64,000 nt of DNA from Octopus vulgaris (Eukaryota), in contig OX597843.1 of assembly GCA_951406725.2 (NCBI GenBank), positions 20,274,001 to 20,338,000 on the forward strand, read 5' to 3'. Both the position numbers and the translations under genes were made by a program. Numbering within the stretch: position 1 is the first letter of the stretch; the number at the start of each line of letters is the position of its first letter. Below are positions 2,202 to 57,640 of this stretch, in pieces. The notes under the pieces were generated by a model. That model was not told the DNA's origin and did no database searches. It worked only from the letters and a program-made list of their open reading frames with translations.

Positions 2202-5200
2202 TGTTGTAGAAGGATTTCGACCACCTTCCAATTGACTAAACGCGAACTGACACATTCCTATTAAATAGACTGGACAACTGTCCAGTCTTCAGCAATAAAT
2301 TGGAAAATAGTTCGCTGTGAGCCATTGACAGAGAGCGTTGGGTAATCGATTCGCGTCGTGTAAACACTTCCTTTCCCCCTGATTCTTTAAATCATATGTT
2401 CCAAACCAGGGTATAAAAGTGGCGAAGAGTTCTTCGAACTTTGCGTTGGATGTTTAAATTTGTTTGGGATGGGTATGAAACCAAAGAAAAATCGTTTAAG
2501 ATAGAAGGCTTATTGGCACCTGTGGTGCAGTTGCAACAACAACAATAGTAACAACAACAAGAGCAACTATAACAGCAACAACAAAACCAATAGTTGCTGG
2601 AACTAATGTTAAAGAAGTATAAAAAATGCTTCAGGCGTGAACTTGCCAGACAGCGTACCAATCTCTATTGAAGTATTCAGTTATAATCCAGAAGAAGGGA
2701 TTACCTTCTCTGAATATTTTCGAAGATACGAAGAAATTCTCAAACAAGAATTTAAAAATTGATCTGAGGGGAAATATAGTACGACTACTTGTAAGAAAGG
2801 TATCCCTTGCCAAATACAAAAAATATAGTAATTATATTCTGCCGAAGAAGTCAGGTGAGATTTGTTACAATAAAAACTATTAATATTTTATCAAATGATT
2901 TAGAACAGGACGAAAATTAACTCTACAGACAGAAGCAGAAGAATGCCAGGAAAGACGACGCAGAAAAAAAAAAAAAAAAAGATTGCTCTCATATTCCAGT
3001 GTCTCCACCGTAACGGATAATAAATTTTAAAAGTCACTGCCCATTTCAAAATATAAATGGCGTCAGATGTGGCAAGAGATATCATAAAAATTCACACTAT
3101 AAAACAAACCTGGAAGACCAAAAGATGAACAGCCTCAAAGGAAATTTGTGGACGTAAAGTTCCAACTAGTTAAGGGCAGTGATATCTCGATAATTAACAC
3201 AGATACATAGAAAAAGGACAGAAGACCTAGATTAAAAGACATTTCGAAAATTGCATGTGGTATTTCAGGAAAATAATTACATTTTAATTGCGTAATGATA
3301 AATCACGTTCCATTTCGTGGGAAAACCTTAAAAACCAAAGGTTTTGTGTTGAATAATATCCCAAATTTATTCGGAACACTGAATAGAATTGCTTAACTTA
3401 TGGGAACTCCCCATAAATCTTTTCAGTAAAAATGTGAATGGTTTTCTTGCCAATACAAATGAAACTTCGGACGATTTGTAAAAATAATTTTGAAAGATTT
3501 TTCCTGAAGTTCTCTCTGATAAATTAGAACTCAGCATCACAACGAAAACGAAGTTCCAAGTAAAAGTAAATGTCAAACCGGTATTTAAATATAAACAAAC
3601 TGTAACTTTTGCCTCGTTGGAACAGATAAACTTTTGCAGCGTTAAAAACAAATAAACAAAATCAGAGTGTATGCTGATTTTTTCCACTGGTTTAAAAGAG
3701 TGACTTAAAATGTTCCACTATCCGCTACCTACCCTGGGGGATATATTTGCAAAATTAGACGGTGGCAAGGTATTTTCTTAATTGGATATCTCTGATGCGT
3801 ACCTACATATTAGAGTAGACGTGAATGCTATAAATACCTAAAAATTAACGCACATATATATATACAACAGGTTACTGTATGCCTTTACGTCACACAGGCG
3901 ATTTTTCAAAATATTATGGTTGCAGTGTTAGCGGATAGTGAATTTGCATTTTCATATCTGGATGATATACTCATTAAAAGCGAATCACGGGATCAACATG
4001 TAGAGCATATAATATATATGTTCGAAAAAATTAGGGATTAAATTGAAAAAGAAAGCGTGAATTTTTTTCTTACCGAAAATAAAATTGGACAAACAATTGA
4101 AAGAAATGGACGAGGACCAGATCCGTTGAAGGCAGACGCAATTAAATACATGCCCCCTCCGACAAATATGACGACCTTACATGATTGCTTTGGAGACAGG
4201 CTAATTATTACCAAAATTATATTCTAAATATGCATAGGGTAAGTGTTACAGTAGATTATATATTTAAAAAATGTCAATTGAAATTGCTCTGAAAATTGTC
4301 AAACGGAATTCGACGAAATTTTAAAATATTAACATCTGATTTGTTGTTAGCACGCTTCGATTCTGTAGCGGAGAATGTTGTAACTTCAGATGCCTCTGAA
4401 TACTGAATCGGCGCAGTAATGCTACATAAATAAAAAGATGGTAACATGAAGGCGGTGGTTCTTGATATCAGCAGAAAATATTACAGCCAAATCAAAAAAG
4501 AGGCTCTTGTAATTATTTTTGCCGTAAAAAATTCCATAGATTTTTACACGGCAGAAGTTTTTGAATACAGACAGATCATCGTCCGTTATTATCAGTATAT
4601 GAGTAAAAGAAATAAATATCTAGCCGTACTGCTAATAGGCTGCAACACTGGGGTACTGTATTCTTAAGCTATGAATTTAAGATAGAGTTTATACTATCTA
4701 AAAAATTAGGACAAGCTAATTGTTTATCAAGACCGATTTCAGAAAATGCTGAAGCATTTGAAGATACCGTGATTGCTACTTTGCGAGCGGAAAATGGAAT
4801 TTAAAGCAAACTGTATAACTCCATGCGTGAACTGCTATTTACGTTAGATGACATAAAATTACAATTGGGAAACGATATATTCATTAAAAAATGAAAGAAA
4901 TGCAGAAGTGTTAAAGAGATGAAAAATATTCGAGCCTATCACAAGGTGTGACAATGTGCTGATGTATGCACAAAGAGTCGTAGTGCCAGCCACACTACAA
5001 AAGCAATTACTAAAGGAATTTCATATTGAGTCAAAGGGATTTCGATAATGAAATCGTTAATGAGAATTTAGGTATAGTGGCCACCAACGGACTGTAACAT
5101 TGAAGATATAGTGATAGTATGCAATACGCTGTTCTCTAGCTCATAATACACCCGTCACGAAATGGCACCCGTGGCCAAAATCACTTAAGGTTTCATATCA

Positions 5201-5203
5201 CTT
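2202..5203 (+). mobile_element. Ty3/Gypsy LTR retrotransposon, decayed and 3' truncated
   Basis: Putative 5' LTR starts TGTTGT at 2202, with PBS-like TGGCGAAGAG at about 2420. RT motifs YPLPTLGDIFAKLDGGKVFS*LDISDAY (~3718) and YLDDILI (~3955). RNase H motifs SDAS..IGAV and YSQIKKEALVIIFAVK. Integrase N-terminus RVVVPATLQKQLLKEFH. Confidence 0.9.
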
Positions 5204-5529
5204 TGTTGTGGGGACTGTTTTTCAACGTGGTCTGAAGTGCATAAATGTAGAAAGCCGACATCTCTGGTTACAAAGATATTTGATGTTTGTTAGAATAATC
5301 AGATCCATCTTTGATCAGCCGATAACGAGTGATAATATAAAAAAAAGAAACAATATTTCAAAATATAGGAGTACAAAGTCTGTACTCCTATATAATCCGC
5401 ACCCATTACCGAAAGCTGAACCGTTATCTCGCTTACCCACAACAATAACAATAATAACGACAACCAATAACCGCCCTTTATTTATCCACTTGTAAAGTCA
5501 TTCACTCGTGAATTTCATCAAACACAACA
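5204..5529. mobile_element. Solo LTR-like segment, different from the 2202 LTR
   Basis: Bounded by the 7-bp inverted termini TGTTGTG...CACAACA. No TSD is visible. Confidence 0.55.
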
Positions 5530-5739
5530 TGGACAAACTTTCTTTCTAAGACAAAATATATATTCAAATAAGTAAAATATAATATCATGAATAGCGATAT
5601 CGAAACCGGTCAATATATTAAAAATTATATTAAAACTATGTATGTGTGCGTATTTTCCTTTTTTTAATTTCTTATATACATGACAACTCACCACATGGGG
5701 ATAATCGAAATCCCTCTATTCTATTACTACAACTACTAC

Positions 5740-5804
<65 letters not shown>

Positions 5805-5924
5805 ATATAGGATATGAGAGGTAATGTTGTCAAGGAGACACAAATGTGTCAGTCAAAGCTAAGTAGGTGCTATGGACATGCAAATGAGGAGTCCAACGTA
5901 GGTTATATATTAACATGGATATGT

Positions 5925-6210
5925 ATAAAATTAACAGAAGGAAATAAAGATCCAAGGCTGTGAAAGATTTAAGAACATTTCTAAAGAGAAGACGTTACAG
6001 CTGTTTCCGGGATATTTATGTATCTCTTCAACGGAGACGTTGCGAGAAGATGGTTAAGCAATAGGTATTCTAGAATAACTATTGCTTAACCATTTTCTCA
6101 CACCGTCTTCGATGAAAGAATATATAAAATATCCCTGGAGCAGCTGAAAGACCTCTCTATAAATGTTCTGAAATCTTTCAAAGCCTTGGACATTTATCTG
6201 ATTCATTTAT
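5925..6210. repeat. Degenerate fold-back, probably an inverted Penelope pseudo-LTR pair
   Basis: Imperfect arms centred on about 6071. Each arm has an HHR-like remnant (GAAACAGCTGTA on the minus strand). Confidence 0.7.
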
Positions 6211-36075: not shown

Positions 36076-36594
36076 ATTCCGTATGCATTCCAAAACCGAA
36101 TTACAGATTTTGACGTATGGGGTTACACATGTTACATATAAATTCCTCTATTTACATAATACTGAGGTCCCATTCATTCTTTTGTTGGTATACCGCTACT
36201 ATTAATATATATATATGTAAGAGAAGGGATATAATATCAAAGCAGATAGCGAATGGCAAGGCTGGATCCTTCAGATGGTAGGTTTTACGCTAAATGTCCT
36301 TTAGGTCCCAATCGATGTAACAGTTTCTTTTTTGGCAACGTAGATATACAGTCTAATAATGATAATAATGGGATTGAGTTTGTATATTCAAATTCTTAAT
36401 TCTCTCTGTCTCTCTCTCACTCTTTCTTACTTTCATTCTATCTTTCTTTCTTTCTCCCTTTCGCTTTCTCTCTCACTCTCTCTCTCTACACATATTTACT
36501 TATTAATTGAAGATATACTCATTAAAATGTTATTTGTTATAAACATTTATATATGTATATGTTAGGGTGTGTGTGTGTAAGTACATGTATATAT

Positions 36595-39310
36595 AAAGAA
36601 GAACTGGATGCTCATATCAAGGAAACCTACAACGATCCGCACCGTAACCAGCCGCTGCCACCTCTACATGGGCTAAATCATCTCTCAGGACCTGATATCG
36701 AATTCCAGATTGGGGACATCAGAGAGAGAGAGGTGAATGACTTCGTAAGAAAAGCTAGAGCAAAGAGTGCCGCAGGATGTGATGGCGTCTCATATAAAGC
36801 CTACAAGTACTGCAATCGTCTGCGAAAGAAGCTCTTCGTCCTTCTCCGAAAACTGTGGCGCGAGGAGACTATAGTAGAGGATTGGTGTAAGGCAGAGGAT
36901 TGGTGTAAGGCAGAGGATTGGTGTAAGGCAGAATGTATATACCTGCCGACAGAGGCCAATGCAAAGACCATAAAACAGTTTAGGCCGATATCCCTATTGA
37001 ATGTGGAAGGCAAGATCTTTATGGGAATTCCGTCGAGGAGAACAGTGACATATTTACAGAGTAACAGATATGTTGATGAACATGTTCAAAAGGCCGGAAA
37101 CCCCGGGATCCCTGGATGCGTTGAACACTGTTTTTCGATTTGGAAAGCGATCCAGGACGCCAAACAGAACCTGAAAAGTCTGAACATGGTAAGGCTCGAC
37201 CTAGCTAACGCGTGGTTCAGTGCCACACGAATTACTAATAAGAGCCATGGACCACCTTCATATTCCTGACAAAGTGATCAAAATAATGAGGATGTACTAT
37301 GACAGTTTCGAGGTTGGCATTGCTGCTGGCTGTACAATATCTATCACATTGTTTATCTTGGTCATGGAGTTGATTTTGAAAGGTGTAGATTTTCCGGAAC
37401 AAATCGCCCATGTACAATCGCCTAAGAAAGCCTTCATGGATGACGTGTCATTTCTAGCTACAGATAAACAAATCATGCAGAATGCTCTCTTGAGATTAGA
37501 CGAACTTGTAAGGTGGTCAAGGACGCGATTTAGAGCAAAAAAGTCGCGTAGTCTGACATTTGTTAAGGGAGTGCAGAAAGAATTTAAGTTTCGGATATCT
37601 GAAGAAAGCATTCCAACAGTCAAGGAAGAGCTCGTCAAGAGCTTGGGACGAGTATACGCTGGAACATTGTCAGACAGAAGTCGTGGAATTGAAATTATGA
37701 AACAAGCCGAGGCTGGGTTATCAGCGATTGATAATTCGAAGTTACCAGGTAAATATAAAATTTGGTGCTTGCAGTTCGGCTTGTACCCGCGACTTGCGTG
37801 GCCACTTTTAATATACGAAGTAGCATTGTCACGAGTTGAAAGCATTGAACAAAAATGTAATGTGTTCATTAGAAAGTGGCTAGGCCTAACTCGTATGTTG
37901 AACAGCTCAGCTCTTTATCATAAAAGAGGTTCGTTGCAGCTACCAATAGCATCAATAGTCGAAATATATAAGCTGGGGAAGATACGGACGGTCAGGATGG
38001 TGAGAGAATCGAAGGATATGGAAATCAGGCGTAACCCACCAGAGATGAACACAGCTAGGAAGTGGAAAGCAGAAGCAGAAACTGACGACATTTTGTCTTC
38101 TCTTATACACAGAGATATGGTGGGAGCAACGCAGAATCATCGGAAAGGACTTGGTTTTGGCGCAGATCAATTCAGACCGTTTGCAAGCATGATGCGGAGT
38201 GAACGCAGATCTGTTGTTAGCAACAGCGTCAAAACAAGAGAAGCAGAGAGAAGAGATCTTCATTTGATCCGATGTGTTCATCAAGGTCAGATGACGAGAT
38301 GGGAAGAACATGTTGTTGAGAGGAAGATAAGTTGGGATGAGATGTGAAAGTGGACGACATCTCGGCTGAGTTTCCTGATTCGTTCATCTTATGATGTTTT
38401 GCCATCACCTACGAATTTAGTAAGATGGAACGTCTTAGAGAATGACATCTGCAAATGTGGAAAGGTCGGTACACTAAAACATATTCTTTCCAACTGTTCA
38501 TTAGCATTGAACAGGTATACATGGAGGCACAACTTGGTCCTTAAGGTTATCTTCAATGCTATAAAGAACAAAATTCATCTCAACAACACTGAGGAAAAAC
38601 CGTTGAAAGTACCATCAAGAAATTTCATTACCTTCGTGCGACCAGGTCAGCGGATCCGTTTCAAGAAGAAGATCAAGAAACTTCCTCAGAAAAATGAAAA
38701 GTGGAACGGCTATTAGGAGGTACCTGCAGATTTACCTGGGTGCCAGGTTTTCTTTCCCATCCCAGTTTCGAAAAAACCAGATGTTTTGATGTGGTGTGAA
38801 AGAAAGAAAGTTGTAAATATAGTCGAGATAACGGTTCCTCATGAAGATAATATGGACGCCGCTCGGGTTCGAAAATTGAACCGTTATGAAAACCTCCTCG
38901 AGGAATGTGAAGACGCAGGGTGGAAAGTGGAACATTTTCCTAGCGAAGTCGGATGTAGAGGGTTTGTTGGATACAGCGTGAGACGACTGTTGTTATCGCT
39001 AGGCCTAACTCATCGTAAAGTCAATACCACTATGACTGATATCCAATCTACAGTGGAGAAGGCTAGCCACTGGATTTGGTTAACAAGAGACGATGAGCGA
39101 TGGCTAGAAGTATATTGAGTTTAACTTCATAACCAGCTGATCTAGCAAGCGGGGCCTCATATCAGTGAGGGGGGGCGGTGCGCATTGATGCCGTCGAGAG
39201 GTAGGCCCCGAAACGGCGTGCATTCTCTCCTGATGACCCATACACTTGCTAGCTTCCGGTATACGGAGCTTTCAACTGGTAGCACGAGCATGTGCAAGTT
39301 GTTTGCAAGA
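36595..39310 (+). mobile_element. HERO-clade RLE non-LTR retrotransposon, 5' truncated
   Basis: FRPISLLNVEGKIF, LDLANA, GIAAGCTIS, AFMDD, C-x-C..HILSNC, KPDV..VEITVPHEDN and EVGCRGF motifs. Few stops. Structured 3' UTR. Confidence 0.93.
39142..39252 (+). ncRNA. Permuted/pseudoknotted hammerhead-like RNA in HERO 3' UTR
   Basis: GCCGT-C-GAGAG..GCCCC-GAAA-CGGC..CTCTC-CTGATGA. Helices co-vary with 52614-52722. Confidence 0.6.
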
Positions 39311-39724
39311 CATATATATATTCAAATAAATTCTCTCTCTCTGATTCACAGATCCAGTTCACAGATCCTTGATGATCCTACTAATGGACAGTAAAGACAC
39401 ACGAAACCTAGAAAAAAACCTCTATGAATAAATTATGTAAATGTGACTTTTATTTGTTCCTCAAGATGAAGGAGTTGAAGGGGACTGTAACAGGGGTCCT
39501 GGAGACACTCCCTTTCAGATGAGATTTCAGCTTAGGTCTGTAGATTATTTTCGAAAGCTGCACCGTGAGAGGTTCCACAGTTTAATGTGCCTCTTGGTTA
39601 TCCAAACGATAATCGATGCGAGATGAAGAACTAATTTTAGTATAAATCATTTACGCAATTCGGTAGCTTAATAACACCTACGTTTGATAGGTCCGAAGAC
39701 GTCAGTAGTAATACTGTTTGGAAA

Positions 39725-39847
39725 CATGGCGGTTCTGTCCACTGACATGACAGGGGTTCCTCTGTCATGGCGGTTCTGTCCACTGACATGACAGGGGTTC
39801 CTCTGTCATGGCGGTTCTGTCCACTGGCATGACAGGGGTTCCTCTGT
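39725..39847. repeat. 41-bp tandem repeat, 3 copies
   Basis: catggcggttctgtccactgacatgacaggggttcctctgt, with one substitution in copy 3. Confidence 0.97.
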
Positions 39848-41269
39848 TAAGCATCATGTCTATGTTACCGTTGGTGAATGAATGAGGTTCAAACGAAGAC
39901 TACGCCTGTCATATTGTTTCCTATGCCTTCAACTCTATGCGTAAATTGAATGAAGTATGGGTGCTATTCCTTGCCAAAGTGCAATCCGTGTTTGGTCCAG
40001 TGCAATGTTTTATCCATATTAAGCATACCCAAACCCTAAACCTAACCCTATATTTAGAAGCTCTTACCCATTCTATCGCTTACAGTATACTCATATACAA
40101 CAACAAGCTATAGAAGAGTACCTCTCTGTTAAATAATTTTGCTGAATTCAAATGTGGAATCCATTTTTTAGGATAACGTCTAGATTTCAAGATACCCAAA
40201 CCCTCAACTTTCACTATTTTCCTGATATTTCAGGGAAATATATTGGGAAATGTAGTACGAATGTCTATTATGGCTTATCGATTATTTTATTAAAGGTCTG
40301 GTGTAAACATCAGGTAATGAAATAATGGCCGCAGCGAGCATTAGTCCCAGGGAATTTTAATGTGAATGAACAGACTTTAGTTCAGCCGGAGAAAATCATC
40401 CAACATCCACTTCTTATCAAGGCAGATTGCAATTAAATACGATGCTGGGCTGTTGAGGTTCAGCACTGAAGAAAACCATTCAAACACAAATTCATGAAAA
40501 AATAGGCATGAACAATAACGTAAACTGTCTGTAGATATATTTGCTAGCTTTTCAGTAGAAGTTCAAAAAATCCTAGCTTTGAAGACAATGCAATTTCTAC
40601 GTATATTAGTACGTTCTTCATAAGCTGGTTTATTCGAAAACAAAACAAAGACATTCTGTGGATCCAGTATCTTACAATTCTGATGTGACCGTATTAAATT
40701 GATGTCCTTTTCGGATTCTGTGTGTCAAAAGACTCCCAGTTCGTCACCAGTTATTTCCTTCGCCTGACGATATTTCCAAATTATTGTCTTGAATAAAGTT
40801 CAAATTGTTTATACACCAAGAACGGGGATTTATATTTTCATACCGTTGAATACGGACAGATTTCATATTTTCATTCGAATAGGAGTAAAGCAGGCTTGAA
40901 ACCGATTCGCAGGATGACCAAGTCTAGAGGGAAGGAGAAAAGATGGTATTCTTCAACTGAAGAATGTTTAAGACAATATGGACTTCACCAAAGGCACTTA
41001 AAATTACTAGGTGGTGGTTTTGAACAGAGATGTGGTTTAAGACTACCATTGAAATAGGCCATTAGAGACAGAGAAAGGATACAGTATAGCTGTGGACATG
41101 GTGTTGAAACACGGTCATTTGTAATGGGCTGAAGATTAGACAAGTGTCCCTCACAATGTTACTTGAAAACTTACACTTCGCTGAGCATTATTAGCAGTGA
41201 AGATCTTTCTTGGCGAAAGTAGATCCTTTGCATAGCTAGTACGGTATTTTAAAGTCCAATCCTTCTCTT

Positions 41270-47157: not shown

Positions 47158-50100
47158 AGTTTAGTGTTCGATTCGACAGTCTTCCGGCAGCTCCTGCAAC
47201 CAAGCTGGTGCCAAACGTAATGCTCTGCACTCCTTTGAACTACATCAGCAAGGTCGAGAGAAGAATCCTGAAGGTTGGGCTACCCGGGATTTTCTTATTT
47301 CTAGCCTAGGCCTGCGCAAAACTGGAGAAGACCCTTCAGTGCTGCTGTAAAAAGTGGCAGAAAAAATACGGGAGGTAACAGTCACGAGTGATAAGTTCAT
47401 TCAAACTGGCGTAAGATATGGGCGCTACGGGTCACCTCTGACGGTGGGAGGGACCTCCGTGTCCCATTGGTTTGCGACTGCCCTCCTCAAGCTGGACAGC
47501 CCCCAGTTAATAAGTTACTGACCCGCCACAGGCCGCCTGCTTCATTGGGTGCTTGGAGCTAAGAATTTGACTTGAAAAACGGCCTGCAGCCTCTGCACCA
47601 GGCCAGCAGCTAAAAGACAAGAAACCACCCGTCCTGCGGTTAGCAAACTGGAATGCCAGGACTACGTGCCCTGGAATATCTGATGATCTACTCAGGGTTG
47701 AAGACACAAGAAAGACAGCCATCATTAACCGTCAACAAAACAGGCTTAACATAGACATTGCTGGGCTGCAGGAGCCAAGACTCCCTTCAAACGGGAAAGT
47801 CAAAGAACAGGATTTCACCTTCTACTGAGCATCTATGCTCCCACTCTCTACAGCCCAGAGGAGACCAAGGACCAGTTCTACAAAGATCTCAACTGTGTCA
47901 TTAAAAATATACCAACAAATGAAAACATCTACCTTCTAGGAGATTCGTGGCCCATTTGTGTTGGACACCTTGATATTGACAACATGAATGACAATGGTCA
48001 GAGGCTACTTGAATTTTGCACATACCATGCGCATCACTAACACATTCTTTGCCAACAAGACATCACACAAGGCATCTTGGAGAAATCCAAGATCTCACCA
48101 CAGGCATCAGATGGATCTCATCATTGCACGAAGATTCTTTCTGAATTCTGTTCACCTGACCCGTAGTTACCACATAGATCACTCACTAATTGGAAGCATG
48201 GTGATGATCCTGCCTAAAAAGTCCATCACTCCAAGAAAATGGGCTGACCACGCATTAACACTGCTAGAATCTCGGATCCTACACAGCGAAAATGTTTTGC
48301 TGTTTCTATCAAGGTTGCCCTCAGTAGCTGCCCAACCTCCTTTGCTGAAATTAGGTGGAATTATATCAGGGAAGCTTTGTATACCACATCAATAGATACT
48401 TTCGGCATGAGAGAAAGGCAACACCCAGATTGGTTCAGTGATGGGCTCTTAGAGCTGGAACCAGTTATCGAAGCAAAGCATGCAGCTCTGATGCAATGCA
48501 AGAGTGATTCTTCTACAAAATCACTCGAAGAACTCAGAAAGGCAAAACATATAACCCAACTGACAGCCAGATGCTGTGCAAATAGGTATTTGGCAGGAAA
48601 TCTGTCAGAGTATCCAGTCAGCTGCCGACAGTGGCGACACCCGGTGGGTGTATGCCGGTTTGAATAAGGACCCTCGGCCCATCCGCAACCAAGTCAGCCC
48701 CTCTGAAATCAACTACTGGATATCTCATCAAGGACCAAAGCAAGAAAATGGACAGATGGGTGGAGTACTACCAGGTTCTCTACTCACGGGAGACCACGGT
48801 AGCTGAGGCTGCAATCGAGAATGTCAAGATCTTGCAAGTCATGTGAGAACTTCACAGTCAAACATCTATAGCAGAGCTCAACAAGGCTATTGACTCCCTA
48901 GCAAGATATAAGGCTCCGGGAAAAGACGGCATCCCATCAGAGGTCATCAGAGCCGGCAAAAACACCATCCTGCTTCGGCACCATCATGAGCTTCTGTGTC
49001 AGTGCTGGGGAGAGGGTACAGTCCCTCAGGATATGCGGGATGCTAACATCATCACGATTTACAAAAACAAAGGTGACCGTGGTGATTGTAACAATTATCG
49101 TGGACTATCTCTTCCACGCACTGTTGGAAAGACCTTTGCTCACGTTTTCCTGCCCAGGGTACAACTGCTTGCTTCTCGAATCCATCCGAAATCGCAGTGT
49201 GGCTTTAGAAGAAACAGATCAACTATCAATATGATATTCTCCATACGCCAACTTCTGGAGGAGTCCAGAGAGCAGAAAATGCCATTACATATGGCCTTCG
49301 TTTGTAAGTAGAAAATGCCTCTTAATCCTGCTCCAAAAAATCGGATATCCACCAAAGCTGCTGAGGATCATCAAATCTTTCCATGATGATATGCAAGGAA
49401 CCATACAGCACAATGGTTCAACATCAGCCGCCTTCCAAATAAAAAACGGAGTAAAGCAAGGTTGTGTCCTTGCTCCTACATTATTTGGCATCTTCTTCTC
49501 GCTCTTACTTTCACATGCCTTTCAGACATCAGATGATGGAGTGTTTCTGCAGAGTAGAAGTGACGGGAAACTGTTCAATCTCTCGCGCCTGCGTGGTAAG
49601 ACCAAAATCAGAAGCGTCCTGCTCAGGGAAATGCTATTTGCTGATGATGCCGCTCTGGTATCACACACAGAAGAAGCCCTAAAAGGCTCATCAGCTGTTG
49701 TGAGCAGGCATGTAACGATTTTGGCTTAGCTATCAGCCTCAAGAAGACCAACATCATGGGTCAGGCTACTCCGGACATCCCAAACATACATATTGGAGAC
49801 CACAGATTACAGGAGGTGGAGACATTTACCTATCTTGGCTCTACCGTCACCTACAACCTATCCCTTGATGTTGAGCTCAATATACGCATTGGCAAAGCAT
49901 CTGCTGTGATGGCCCAACTCTCGAAACGAGCATGGGTCAACATTAAGCTGACCAAGAACACAAAAATGAAGATTTACCAGGCATGTGTACTTAGCACTCT
50001 ACTGTATGGAAGTGGGACCTGGACGCCATTCACACGCCAAGAGCGTCGCCTAAATATCTTTCACCTGCGCTGCCTCTGGAAAAGCCTTCGCATCAAATAG

Positions 50101-50653
50101 CAGAATCATGTCCCCAACAAAGATGTCCTCAAGCAAGCTGGAATACTAAGCATGTTTGCACTCCTCACACAAAGACTTATGAGATGGCTTGGACATGTTA
50201 GCCGTATGGGAGATGGCAGAATCCCCAAGGACATATTCTACAGAGAGCTTACTAGGTGCACAAGGTCTGCAGGTAGACCGTTCTTACGATACAAGGATGT
50301 TTGCCAAAGGGACATGAAGGCCTGAAACATTAATATTAGCATCTTGGAATCAGTTGCCAGCAACCGTGGAAATTGGTGACGTACCGTAAAAGAAGGAATA
50401 CAAAGTAGTAACGGAGAGTGAGAGAGGAGAAATGGAAAGACAAGAAAAGATGTCAACAAGAAACTATGACATTACAACCAGCCAGGAAAAGTCTTCGCTA
50501 CATTTGCAGCACCTGCCAGAGGAAGTGTTTGTCCAGGATAGGACTACACAGCCATAGCAGGAAATGAATTAGGACATGAAATGTAAAAAGCCGGACTAGA
50601 TTATTTTATGCGCAACTCCATTGTCTCCCGAGACAAAAAAGATGCCAACAACA
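47158..50653 (+). mobile_element. RTE-BovB LINE, near full length, decayed
   Basis: APE motifs LANWNART..IDIAGLQE and RT motifs DCNNYRGLSL, GVKQGCVLAPTLF and LFADD. (CAA) tail and possible 9-bp TSD ATTATAATT (47149 and 50654). Confidence 0.95.
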
Positions 50654-51004
50654 ATTATAATTGTCAGTTTAATAAATAAATAAGTTAACATTTATAATGT
50701 CCTAAATTTGATGAGCCAACTATTGTTCTCCTCCATTTTCTTTTTGATTATATCTTGAGTGACAACAACGCTCAAGATATACAACGGACTGGAAATAGAA
50801 GTGCTCTAATGAGCTGTATACACTTTTCTTATATCCGAGGGGAGGCAATGCGAGCAACAACTACAGGAACATCGCAAAATCCACAGAAACACAAAATACA
50901 TACAAATCTTCATATACTCATTTATATCTCTAAAGACCGGCATTTAAAAATTCAAAAATTTAGTAATGTATAAATATATTGTATACAAATATAAATTTTG
51001 CATA

Positions 51005-52760
51005 TAACACCATGAATCTACGGAGTGGCAACGGCTTGAAATACGTATTGCAGCCGGATGCACGATATCAGTAGTGATAGTCATGGAAATACTACTCAGA
51101 TCTACAAACTGTGAGAAAGCTGTTACTAAGACACCATTAAGGGCTTTTATGGACGACATAACTATATTATCGTAAATATAGAGAAGAAGCAGAGGGAACG
51201 GTAGAGCGGTTGGACGAACTGATTGGATGGGCAAGGATGAAATTCAAAGCCAAAAACTCTCGAAGCGTGACTTTCGTGAAAGGAAGGCAAGAAGTGAAAT
51301 TCAGGATAGGAAGTGAAGGCATACCAACGGTTAAAGAACAACAGGTAAAGAGTCTCGGCAGATGGTATAGAGGTTTATTAAATGATACGAAGCAAGGAAA
51401 AGAAACGCACGAGTTAGAAGAACAAGGATTAAAGGCAATTGACAGAACAACGCTGCCGGGAAAATTCAAATGTTGGATACTGCAATTTGGTCTGTCCCCA
51501 AGAATAATGTGGCCATTACAAATGAACGAAATAGCCTCGAGTAGAATAGAAAGGATGGAGCAAAGATGCAGTGTGTTTATCAGAAAATGGCTTGGTCTGC
51601 GAAAACCACTGAATACAACTGCACTATATGGAAAAGCCGAGCTGCAACTACCAATAACATCAATCGCCGAAGAATATAGGGCAGGAAAGGCAAGGACAGT
51701 AATGATGCTAAGGTATTCAAAAGATCAGAGTATCCGGGAAAACCCTCCAAAGGTACGAACAGGGAGGAAATGGAAGGCGGAAGAGGCAGTAAACAGGGTT
51801 ATCGGAAAACTAAAGCACGCAGATATAGTCGGAGTGACGCAAGAAGCTACAACCAGCCTAGGGTCGCAAAATTTCAGGCCATTTTGCAAGAGCAGTGTAA
51901 AAGAGATGAAAGAGGCAGTGGTATACGAAGTGAGAAAGGAGGAAGAAGAAAGGCAAAATTTACATTTGGTGCCAAACATCAACAGGGACAGTGCCTGAGA
52001 TGGGAGGAATATGTGATTAACCGCAGAATATCATGAAAGGAACTTTGGACTTGGGAACAAGCAAGAACATCCTTCCTGATCAAGTCTACCTCCGACGTTC
52101 TACCCTCACCGGCGAACTTAGTCCGGTGGAACATAAACAAAATTGAAGAGTGTAGATGCGGAGAGAAAGCGACGGTTAGACATGTTATGTCAAGTTGCAG
52201 ACTAGCACTTGAAAGAGATACTTGGCAGCATAATCAAGTCCTCAGCGTCATAAGCGCAGCACTCAAGGAGAAGATCGAGAGGTACAATAGGGGGAGAGTA
52301 CCCAAAAGTAGAAAAGCGCAGGAAAGTATAGAACATCGCAACACGCCGACGGGAAATAACATCAATAGGTGAGACTGGCTGACTGAATCAGCTTCGCTGA
52401 CTGACAGGTGATGGTCGTTAAGAATAAGCGCGGGCTAAAACTACGCGCCTTCTCTAGTCAGTTAAGGTGAGACAGTGTCATGTGACAAGTAGCTGGGGCT
52501 ATGTGGCAGGTATTTAAAGGGAAAATTTGACAAGACAGTCAGTCACCGGCTGACACTCGCTGACGATACATCGAAGAGGCCAGGGAAAAGAAGAACGAAG
52601 ACATGTACCCAACACCAGAGCTGAAGACACTCCGAAAGGGGGTTCCTGCCACGTCAAAACGGTAGAGGAGTAGGGGCCGAAACCGGACGTGGTTCCTCCT
52701 GATGATGTCTTGAGTTAACTGGATCCTATAAAGGAGCTGTTGGGGTAGCAGACCACGAAA
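51005..52760 (+). mobile_element. Second, divergent HERO element (RT C-terminus, no RLE, 3' UTR)
   Basis: IAAGCTIS, AFMDD and LPGKFKCWILQFG motifs. Homologous to 37300-38640 and 39130-39285. Confidence 0.9.
52614..52722 (+). ncRNA. Permuted/pseudoknotted hammerhead-like RNA in HERO 3' UTR, copy 2
   Basis: CGGT-A-GAGGAG-t-AGGGGCC-GAAA-CCG..TTCCTC-CTGATGA. Confidence 0.6.
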
Positions 52761-52769
52761 CACGGTTGT

Positions 52770-55700
52770 AATTCCTAAGTATAAATTTGTTACAATAAGA
52801 GAAATAAATAGAATAATAATAAATAAAAATAAACCATACAATGGCAAATTAAAGGACGAATTAAAATTCTAGCGAAATGTACATAGAAGATAATAATTAT
52901 ACAATTTAAAAAAAATACAAGTTTACAAAGATACACAGAAGTCCCTCTACGGGGGTTTCGGAGACGCGCCAATTAATATTAGTCATATCATATACTTAAA
53001 ATTGGCACTCCCCTCATCAGGATATCCTATACATACAACACATAGTAAACGTGAACAAATACACAATTACATACCGGCCATATTCAGAAACGAGACATTA
53101 CGTACTCCCAAAAATTTTTATCCGATCCTGAATGCTATTTTATATGCATATAATTCGATCCAGCAGCCATTGTAAATTTTATGCACACAGCGCCATCTGG
53201 ACCATTTCAGTTCTGCACTTATTTTATTTTATTTTTCTTCAATCTTATAAGTTCTCACATACATGCAAAGCCACATATTCGGGTTCAAGTCCTTGACACA
53301 TTTTATACTAATAGCTATTTTTTTCTTTTAATAATTACATTACTTTAGTTTTATTTCATTCACTTCTTACTATGCTTACTAAATTTAATTCAATTGTTAT
53401 TGCTTAGCTCTAACTTTTATTGCTATTTCTATTTCTAAATTTCTTATAGAACGTCGAGTGGATCTTATGCGTACACGCCGGTATTGCATCAGTGAACTTA
53501 TTTAACACTGCGTTGTTGTAATTTTTCAATATAGTATATGCTTCCATTATGCATAAACCGCATCTAGTGGACCCAATTCTATAAGGGGGGCATGTGCAAT
53601 GATAGGCCATGATATTTTAAATTCAACATTCCTTTCCTTAAGGTCATTAACATGTAATGCCAATGTTGTAGAGGTCTTATATTTAGGATTGTTGAAAGAG
53701 CTCAGGTGGGATCGATACCTCTCCTTAAAATCTACTGTGCTTCCAACATATATTTTTCTCTGGCCTCCTTGAGCCTCAACACTACATTTATAAACTACAT
53801 TTTCCTGGCGACAATTTCCGCTAATCGGACATACTGATGAGCCCCCTACAATTACATTTCTTCAACCTGCTACGGGGTCTCGTATTACTGATCACTCCGA
53901 AACCATGCCCCCTCCCAGTACTAGGATCCACCATATCATTTACACCATCGTTCCTACTATTTTCCGGTATATGTATTGTTATATGTATATGTATTATTAT
54001 TCTTACTATTACCATCATTCCTATTTTTATTTTTACTAATATTTGTATTACCATTATCACTACAATTAACACTATTATTACCACCCTGATAATCATTATA
54101 ATCACTAATATCATCACCAACATCATTATTATGATTATCTCTACTATTTGTCATTCCAATACGCCCTTCATAATCGATTTCAGAAGACGTACCATTAATA
54201 TTACTACTATCTTCTGTCCTTAATGAATTTTCCATTAAAGCTTCTGTCATCGTTTCTATCATTATAGCGCCTTATTTTACTTCTGTTCAACGAAGCAACA
54301 ATAGATCCGACATTGGGAGTGTCTGAGTAGGCCAACTTGATTGTTGACTTGTTACATATTGAATAGTACTTATGGTGTTTTGGGAAATTTTCCTTCAATA
54401 ACTTTAAAAATAGCTTTGGTAAACCTTTCACCCTTAATGAAAAGGGAGAGACAAACCAAATAACTTGACGAATCCTAGACTTAGTATTAATAATGGGATT
54501 ACAATATGTTGCTCGACTTGACGTAAGGCCACTCCTGTATGTATTAGTAATATTTATATTTTTATTTTTACTACTATTAGTATTATTCTTATTCCTATTT
54601 TCAACTTCACTAGACCTAAGACCAACTTTAAAACTCAATTCACATTTATGACTCCTATTATTTGCAACCCCTTCCCTCCCGTTGCTGTTATCATCCATGG
54701 TATTTTAATCATTACAATTCTCTCATTATTAACCTTATTAACGTGGTTACCATTTACAAAACCAACCACATCACATTTATTTCTCTTATTTCCAAATCTC
54801 ATTTTATCAGCATAAATATTGGTCATTATCAGCTTGTTGCAAGTTCCTTGGGGGTCATGAGGGGAGCCTCTGCTATCCGAAATCCGTTTCATATCGTCGC
54901 TGACCATGCTGGCAATTTAATTTTTAATTTTGTATTGTGTATGTATTCAATATTATCTGTGAACCCACTCAATTTCAAGGCATTGTTGTATATTGGGGCG
55001 TGTTGATTAAAGATGTCTTTATTCGCCGATAGGTTTGAGATTCTGATAGAAATTGCAGTTATAATGCTATTGAAGGTTGATTTGGGATGATTTGAGGAAA
55101 CATTGATATATCGGGAAGTTTGGTTTGGTTTTCGGAAAGGGTAGTGTAAGCTAGTATTCAGATAGAGAGTGATGTCGAAGAAATTTGCCACTTTAGGATT
55201 ATTCTCAAAAACGATGCTCAAATTATAAAGGTCCTTGAGAGATTCTCTAAGGTCCTTTTTCATTTTTTCAATCTGAGGATTTGAATGATTAGAGAAGATG
55301 AATAATGCGTCATCCCAATAAATCCCTTCGGATAGAGATTGGAAAAACCGCTTAAACTTGTCTAACAAAAATAGACCAACAATATCCGTTACTTGAGCCG
55401 AGTCCGATGATCCCATAGTGATGTCGAATAAAATAAAAGAATGCGATTTAGACCAGTGGTGCTTTCCATAATTTATCAGAGTCATTCTTGCTGCTTGAAT
55501 AATATCAATATCTAGATTCGATATTTCAACAAAGTTCCGGGCTAAAATGATTGCTTTATTCAGTAAGATGAGGGAGATCAAGGAGTTGTAATTCGAAATA
55601 TCAAATTGTACAAATGACGATGAGTCATCACATTTAATTGTGTGAAACCTATATAAAATAGCATTGGTAGATTCCCATAAGGGCAACATCGTCCTTTCTC

Positions 55701-57452: not shown

Positions 57453-57640
57453 AATATGTTACATTACTGGATAGTCAAGATAAAACTCTGAGTTTCAGAT
57501 GCCAAAGTGGAAATCCACAACACCATCTCTTCGGTTATCTGGCTATTTTCCAGATAACCGAAGAGATGGTGTTGTGGATTTCCACTTCGGCATCTGAAAC
57601 TCAGAGTTTTATCTTGACTATCGAGTAATAACATATTATA
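57453..57640. repeat. Near-perfect ~90-bp-arm fold-back with mirrored HHR variant
   Basis: Arms 57453-57542 and 57550-57640, with a 7-nt loop. Confidence 0.9.

Follow-up and report, generated by a model that had tools for sequence, protein, structure and literature searches.

A hammerhead fold with non-circularly permuted blocks, conserved in two HERO-like LINE families of Octopus vulgaris, and its possible role on a circular template

The stretch of Octopus vulgaris DNA analyzed in this work (hereafter the window; 64,000 nucleotides of contig OX597843.1) holds, between positions 52614 and 52722, a series of short complementary blocks arranged around the core letters of a hammerhead ribozyme. 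A preliminary description had read this series as the divergent second copy of a permuted hammerhead of a HERO element, maintained by selection on structure, and had pointed out a difficulty: the sequence 3' of the putative cut is retained in the insertions, so that any cleavage would have to be regulated, reversible or bypassed. The question that this locus raises is, then, whether the fold is real, which elements carry it, and what a self-cleaving RNA might do in elements that keep the sequence on both sides of its cut.

The elements that carry the motif

The window does contain a second motif with the same build (39142-39252), and both motifs correspond to the 3' UTR of LINEs of the R2 superfamily (HERO-like). 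They are not, as had been proposed, two copies of one element, but belong to two families with hundreds of copies each, whose proteins are ~51% identical over residues 287-1113. Each motif sits after a broken ORF with RT and CCHC motifs, to which restriction-like endonuclease motifs are added in family A. The two insertions are:

36594..39312, + strand: family A element, broken and 5'-truncated, with RT, CCHC and restriction-like endonuclease
51020..52776, + strand: family B element, delimited by a blastn search of the window with the family B unit and by the ends of dispersed copies

The family B copy of the window is 5'-truncated, frameshifted and internally deleted, and its 3' end is GTAATTCCT, without poly(A). 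An intact family A unit found elsewhere in the genome measures ~3737 bp (autonomous units are 3.7-3.9 kb) and has an ORF of ~1115 aa; in a 1115-aa ORF, an N-terminal zinc finger, an RT, a CCHC motif and a PD..D/ExK-type nuclease could be read by eye. The best PDB matches are R2 proteins (E 1e-17), the broken window copy matches RVT_1 below the curated cut-off, and the combination of a telomerase-like RT with a GIY-YIG nuclease, hallmark of the Penelope-like elements, is absent from the family A ORF. In the 2.8-Gb genome, exact matches to the core pattern number 624 for family A and 875 for family B, and many of the near-identical family copies have an intact ORF. Dispersed copies have unrelated flanks, and many family A 3' flanks are TA-rich. 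In most dispersed family B copies the hairpin is preceded by an additional C, and GGCCCC/GGTCCC stands where the window copy has GGTTCCT; the window copy is thus decayed relative to them, and some of its G-U pairs arose after insertion. We take HERO to be the likely clade, in view of target behavior and of motifs that presumably resemble those of HERO; named fish proteins are 59-93% identical to their respective best motif-bearing loci, which is only suggestive of HERO membership.

Several other features of the window were observed. Both insertions recur many times together with their flanks (36594-39360 and 51020-52830) at ~19.9-21.1 Mb of contig C30, so the window is part of a multi-copy segmental duplication. 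Immediately upstream of the family B copy lies another broken LINE with an RVT_1 match (48300-50660), which we take to be RTE-like from its motifs. The RT region of family A contains a short tandem triplication (36876-36935), a tandem repeat of ~39 bp lies downstream of that element (39727-39850), and a long near-perfect inverted repeat at 57504-57588 gave weak matches to microRNA families, below gathering scores.

The hammerhead fold and its conservation

All the helices and core motifs that the preliminary description had named in 52614-52722 pair as it proposed, with CCAG/CTGG at 52615-18/52719-22. The parts of the motif in both window copies are as follows:

52608..52744, + strand: putative ribozyme domain of family B, with outer helices 52608-13/52739-44, 52615-18/52719-22 and 52619-22/52713-16
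52624..52629, + strand: 5' strand of helix X of family B, pairing with 52706-11, directly after CUGAUGA
52630..52641, + strand: hairpin H of family B, with a GAAA loop; fourth arm of the junction
52641..52647, + strand: 5' strand of helix Y of family B, pairing with 52672-78; gives G10.1 of stem II
52649..52670, + strand: stem III extension (52649-55) and block S of family B, comprising a stem III strand, the GUA triplet and a stem I strand (52665-70)
52672..52692, + strand: block G of family B, comprising the 3' strand of Y (stem II), GAAA (52679-82) and a stem III strand with its extension
52693..52711, + strand: block C of family B, comprising a stem I strand, CUGAUGA (52699-705) and the 3' strand of helix X
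52720..52776, + strand: 3' tail of family B, with a TCC/GGA hairpin, an outer-helix strand and the putative priming region
39132..39280, + strand: putative ribozyme domain of family A, the motif itself being 39142-39252
39152-54/39237-39, + strand: helix X of family A, with the extension 39142-49/39245-52
39155-70, + strand: hairpin H of family A
39172-76/39205-09, + strand: helix Y of family A
39190-94/39213-17, + strand: stem III of family A
39196-201/39224-29, + strand: stem I of family A
+ strand: core of family A, with GUC (predicted cut after C39195), GAAA (39210-13) and CUGAUGA (39230-36)

Both copies have the hammerhead core (CUGAnGA, GAAA and NUH), with the blocks in the order cleavage site, GAAA, CUGAnGA (S-G-C), and in family B the cut is predicted, by analogy, to fall after A52664. 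A loose S-G-C descriptor applied to the window gave two matches against a shuffle mean of 0.27, although four of the 100 shuffles also reached two. The strong statistics were obtained from relatives: an alignment of 38 homologous proteins led to 79 metagenome loci with 30-53% identity (the best 80 of 168 confirmed stretches), of which 10 had less than 130 nt left behind the match and were set aside, leaving 69 to be scored. Among these 69 loci, from the best 80 of 168 stretches, the strict motif occurs in 42, on the sense strand only and 58-213 nt after the ORF match, versus 0.04 on average, and never more than 1, over 200 rounds of shuffling; the relaxed motif occurs in 56, versus 0-2 in 15 rounds, and 13 loci have no motif match. 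Just five matches were found elsewhere, in the other 602,923 bases, and three of these lie one unit upstream; the position of the motif is fixed. The core letters belonged to the descriptor, and the matches were still about 1000-fold above shuffles. No match with G17 appeared in the scan of the relatives even when G17 was allowed. In a quick tree, the motif-bearing loci are spread over the whole protein tree.

For the pair counts, 44 sequences were clustered at 80% into 25 clusters, and counts were anchored on the core, as a MAFFT alignment of the 25 motifs misaligned their 5' half. The cleavage triplet is GUC in 11 clusters, GUA in seven and GUU in seven. Stems I and III flank the cleavage site (A15.1-U16.1), with 123 and 120 of 125 cells paired, respectively, and two-sided changes; stems I, III, Y and H pair in part by construction, and the column shuffles used for comparison ignore relatedness. 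GAAA lies 12-16 nt from the cut in all 25 clusters, which corresponds to a short stem I-stem II linker. The upstream strand supplies helix X, the partner of the CUGAnGA exit, then hairpin H, and then helix Y, the partner of the letters before GAAA. Helix X, read blind after Y and H had been fixed, pairs in 89 of 100 cells versus 48.6 in shuffles, with 10-13 two-sided changes in each of its columns. The first Y pair is G10.1-C11.1, next to G12, and is G-C in 23 clusters and G-U in the other two, G10.1 coming from the upstream strand. The preliminary description was thus right in bringing the stem II partner from upstream. The stem II of canonical type-SGC hammerheads was also tried and rejected: the position after CUGAnGA pairs with the one before GAAA (C11.1) in no more than 3 of the 25 clusters, and 38 of 100 cells pair, versus 42.1 in shuffles.

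A perfect four-way junction, with all three seams free of unpaired bases, is formed in 22 of the 25 clusters. When the upstream strand was shuffled 60 times, the junction score of the real sequence was never attained in 16 clusters and was attained at most twice in four, the score being non-significant in the remaining five. Helices X, Y and III bridge the cut by 13-24 contiguous bp. The core letters and G10.1-C11.1 are kept across the 25 clusters, in which N7 varies and the helices covary. Compensatory changes were found in all five helices, and selection on the structure, as first suspected, is strongly supported. Single-sequence folding, which cannot show knots, gave a z score of -2.96 for copy B, that of copy A being close to 0.

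Taken together, these results identify the motif as a conserved hammerhead fold whose blocks are non-circularly permuted and whose stem II has a four-way junction at its base; in this junction, we infer, the hammerhead core stacks on helix Y. The motif is real, clade-wide and not explained by known families. Since it has the full hammerhead core without the continuous stem II of all described types, we call it, pending an assay, a new hammerhead variant. With a helix that departs straight from A9, the motif interrupts block C, which Eckert et al. assume to be continuous, so that activity is not guaranteed. Natural hammerheads with an extra base at the position after A9 are known from the available excerpts of the literature, and a helix at that position was not found in the literature searched.

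Comparisons with known families and with the relatives lacking the motif gave the following. No ribozyme family of Rfam was matched in the window or in 13 loci, nor in two relatives without the motif, and simple home-made HDV and twister patterns found nothing in six relatives lacking it; in viral contigs, 79 pattern matches yielded none that could be confirmed. Among the 13 loci with no motif match, L154/L165 and L171 keep the 3'-to-5' contiguity described below and lack the hammerhead fold. Long helices are predicted in the hammerhead slot of L154 (2748-3000), L165 (2656-2900) and L171 (1240-1600), and these might be a candidate for another self-cleaving RNA.

Head-to-tail copies and the ends of the insertions

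A protein search of the genome returned family A matches 3735-3737 bp apart, and 20 long family A loci, chosen for long ORFs or for such pairs, were fetched. Seven of them span 1.06-1.53 units, three of which were not known to be tandem when chosen; in family B, 3 of 20 loci are longer than one unit. The head-to-tail copies, of 1.0-1.53 units, have one common 3'-to-5' junction, without poly(A) and without filler, at which the 3' tail runs seamlessly into the 5' UTR. The 5' ends form a continuum between 0.68 and 1.53 units, with no fixed 5' end, and in the tandems the upstream copy is always the truncated one. Genome-wide, the junction pattern was found in 23 family A loci, all at one point and some internally deleted; none of the 23 matches belongs to a two-junction locus, no two lie within one unit, and no copy reaches two units. 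Of the 47 metagenome contigs with at least 600 nt downstream, eight have the N-terminus of the RT behind the ORF end in the same orientation, an adjacency that collapsed-repeat assembly can create, though only where adjacency exists.

Private variants common to both repeats were found in 5 of the 12 testable loci (five in L091, four in L260, two in L094, and one each in L092 and L262), and none in the other seven; within-locus divergence is clearly below that to the nearest other locus in L091 only. Locus L092, which is 1.45 units long, stops 8 nt inside the next unit. A local tandem duplication of the inserted element was considered and ruled out, as the junctions are all identical and contain no flank. 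These elements do not behave as linear units that have a defined 5' end and are primed where the RNA ends; judged from their sequences, they are genetically circular.

Further observations were made at these loci. A conserved 5' UTR signature lies just past the junction (L092, 5590-5740) and downstream of the motif in L153, L157, L162 and L209; it consists of CAGTGAC followed by a CCAG-GAAAG-CTGG-like hairpin, is repeated in family A and recurs in distant families, and is a candidate priming, promoter or translation signal. L257, L258, L264, L265 and L260 are internally deleted family A derivatives, with units of ~0.6-3.1 kb that keep the 3'-to-5' junction, and could possibly be retrozyme-like non-autonomous circles. 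In L146, two head-to-tail elements (5-2273 and 3735-5995) are 70% alike and one unit apart, with a motif in each. A family B copy in L122 starts with a 51-nt ribozyme fragment fused to mid-ORF sequence (4591-4641), a joint that suggests a template switch.

The ends of the insertions bear on priming and on cleavage. Family A 3' ends match next-unit sequence over at least 2 nt in 29 of 75 cases and over at least 4 nt in 11 of 75 (5.7% and 0.8%, respectively, in the control flank), six nucleotides of next-unit sequence are present in 4 of 24 family B 3' ends, and the overrun into the next unit is variable (0-8 nt). As the 3' ends extend into next-unit sequence, priming is internal, on an RNA that continues past its apparent end. 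At the predicted cut of family A, foreign letters stand just before it at 11 sites, nine of which are short insertions starting exactly there; the same test gave 5, 1, 1, 1, 0, 0, 0 and 0 truncations at offsets -12, -8, -3, +2, +4, +6, +8 and +14. Offset -12 has an ATT microhomology with AT-rich flanks, and 9 versus 5 alone is not significant (p 0.21). In family B, two insertions start at the predicted cut (five candidates, counted without offset controls). This excess of starts at the predicted scissile bond would be an indirect trace of cleavage. The read-through copies (81 sequences of family A and 29 of family B, duplicates included) show an unchanged length at the cut. Four putative RNA runs, available as contigs only, cover the element and are uninformative on ends, strand and circularity; in three of them, contigs begin 26-30 nt ahead of the junction, which falls short of the bridging limit.

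A possible replication cycle and its relation to known systems

We consider it probable, from the sequence evidence, that the fold cuts longer-than-unit transcripts to units, which would be rejoined into circles and copied by rolling-circle target-primed reverse transcription (TPRT). A locus with two ribozymes would be transcribed through and cut at both sites, and the ends of the unit RNA would stay clamped by helices X, Y and III, over their 13-24 contiguous bp, and be ligated by the reverse reaction or by a host ligase. The element protein would then nick the target DNA and prime inside the circle, ~112-117 nt past the cut, via short homology; the RT would cross the sealed cut and sometimes pass its start point, regenerating competent two-ribozyme copies, and unsealed RNA would give rise to ~117-nt insertions that begin at the cut. 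Such a rolling circle with cut monomers would explain why the downstream sequence is retained. The difficulty raised in the preliminary description is probably answered by its own guess of tandem transcripts and reversibility, the elements being circularly permuted and longer than one unit. Counted against the circle model are the absence of copies of two units, the 7 of 12 tandem loci without a private variant, the only two cut-start copies of family B versus 875 intact ones, the L146 pair being only 70% alike, and the contiguity of L154/L165 and L171 without the fold. With more reserve, we favor the wider reading of an autonomous animal LINE clade that would replicate via a protein-coding circular RNA of ~3.7 kb, with a four-block hammerhead as cutter and ligase and rolling-circle TPRT with internal priming; this would be a viroid-like cycle within the R2 superfamily and the first non-circularly permuted ribozyme in animal genomes.

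Other explanations account for part of these observations. The ribozyme might cut and the monomer never be sealed, the fold holding its ends together as a nicked circle and the RT jumping the nick; we regard this as unlikely. The RT of R2 can continue over non-continuous templates, and the insertions that stop exactly at the cut would agree with this reading, as would the 13-24 bp that span it. Template jumps, however, usually gain or lose bases, and no indel was found at the cut in 110 read-through sequences; moreover, run-off is rare (9 versus 624). It is also improbable that the templates are uncleaved linear read-through transcripts of tandem sources, primed internally, with a slow or protein-gated ribozyme that would serve another step such as freeing the 5' end, translation or turnover. 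The Penelope-like element PAc does so in vitro, according to the available excerpts of PMC11167929, and it would agree with this explanation that 1.53 units are never exceeded and that most copies read through the cut. Linear templates, however, can only shorten the extra part, and copies longer than one unit are still present in two families whose proteins are ~51% identical and in the elements of other animals; five loci have shared private variants, and there is no two-junction source in this assembly, in which collapsed arrays are possible. Finally, although RLE elements recognize 3' UTR structures (as established for R2), stem II is not canonical and L146 contains two different elements in tandem, a non-catalytic protein-binding fold that directs priming, with tandems formed by repeated insertion at the element's own end, is very improbable in the face of core letters and a G10.1-C11.1 pair kept over 25 clusters while the helices covary and N7 varies, of insertions that begin at the predicted scissile bond, and of an identical, filler-free junction with the truncation always in the upstream copy.

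If the circle model is true, LINE-type TPRT needs neither a start at the RNA 3' end nor a linear template, and the consensus sequences of this clade have arbitrary ends. There would also be a hammerhead topology outside the six-permutation scheme, missed by Rfam and by published descriptors; the fold itself occurs hundreds of times in the genome of at least one animal. The circular-template model proposed for Penelope-like elements becomes testable in an unrelated, young and intact element with near-identical copies. An RLE protein priming internally on circular RNA would be of interest for RNA-templated gene insertion, and a self-clamping ribozyme for RNA circularization.

Among known ribozymes, the closest are the type-SGC hammerheads, which the available parts of Eckert et al. 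2023 (PMC10085705) describe as validated from metatranscriptome contigs, with none in the genomes of known organisms. As far as those parts go, the motif shares with them the S-G-C order, the core, the pseudoknotted stems I and III and the short stem I-stem II linker (PMC10085705). Their stem II, however, is built by blocks C and G, the former being assumed uninterruptible, whereas in the present motif a fourth strand, lying upstream, provides G10.1, and A9 is followed by another helix of the four-way junction; besides, in contrast to the metatranscriptome-only type-SGC, the motif is found in an animal retrotransposon clade.

Among retroelements, R2 has the same single ORF with zinc finger, RT, CCHC and restriction-like endonuclease, and a self-cleaving ribozyme in a UTR, the one here being predicted (available excerpts of PMC13580325, PMC13708176 and PMC6765202). 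According to the same excerpts, the R2 ribozyme is a 5' HDV-like one that defines a linear RNA with fixed ends, targeted to 28S rDNA, unlike the situation described here. With the HERO clade, as portrayed in the accessible parts of PMC4640811 and PMC7650587, the elements have in common an RLE-type ORF and fish relatives, and perhaps also insertion that is non-specific or microsatellite-leaning. No ribozyme, tandem structure or circular intermediate is mentioned for HERO in the portions of the literature searched. That search covered listings and the starts of abstracts, with subscription papers, Fell et al. 2025 (Nature; including Hero elements), Repbase Reports and bioRxiv supplements outside its scope, and returned no HERO or other RLE LINE with a hammerhead or a circular template.

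In Penelope-like elements, going by the excerpts at hand, hammerheads lie in pseudo-LTRs and a circular template has been proposed for more-than-unit copying (Cervera and de la Pena 2014, PMC4209133), and the hammerhead of one such element was dispensable for insertion in vitro, unprocessed RNA being the main substrate (Frangieh et al. 2024, PMC11167929). Partial-tandem copies, a hammerhead per repeat and an internal RT start are shared with them; they have, by the same partial sources, a telomerase-like RT, a GIY-YIG nuclease and minimal type I hammerheads, whereas the elements described here have an R2-superfamily RT, a restriction-like endonuclease and a knotted hammerhead. Retrozymes, in the available parts of bioRxiv 10.64898/2026.07.22.740005 and 10.1101/2022.07.19.500677, have hammerhead-processed circular RNA intermediates and head-to-tail insertions; the latter are common to both groups, and a circular intermediate is here probable. 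Retrozymes are described in such excerpts as small, non-coding and non-autonomous, in contrast to the ORF-coding, autonomous units of 3.7-3.9 kb reported here, beside which there are the internally deleted longer-than-unit derivatives L257, L258, L264 and L265. Altogether, the mode of these elements resembles the model proposed for Penelope-like elements and retrozymes, and the elements themselves belong to neither group.
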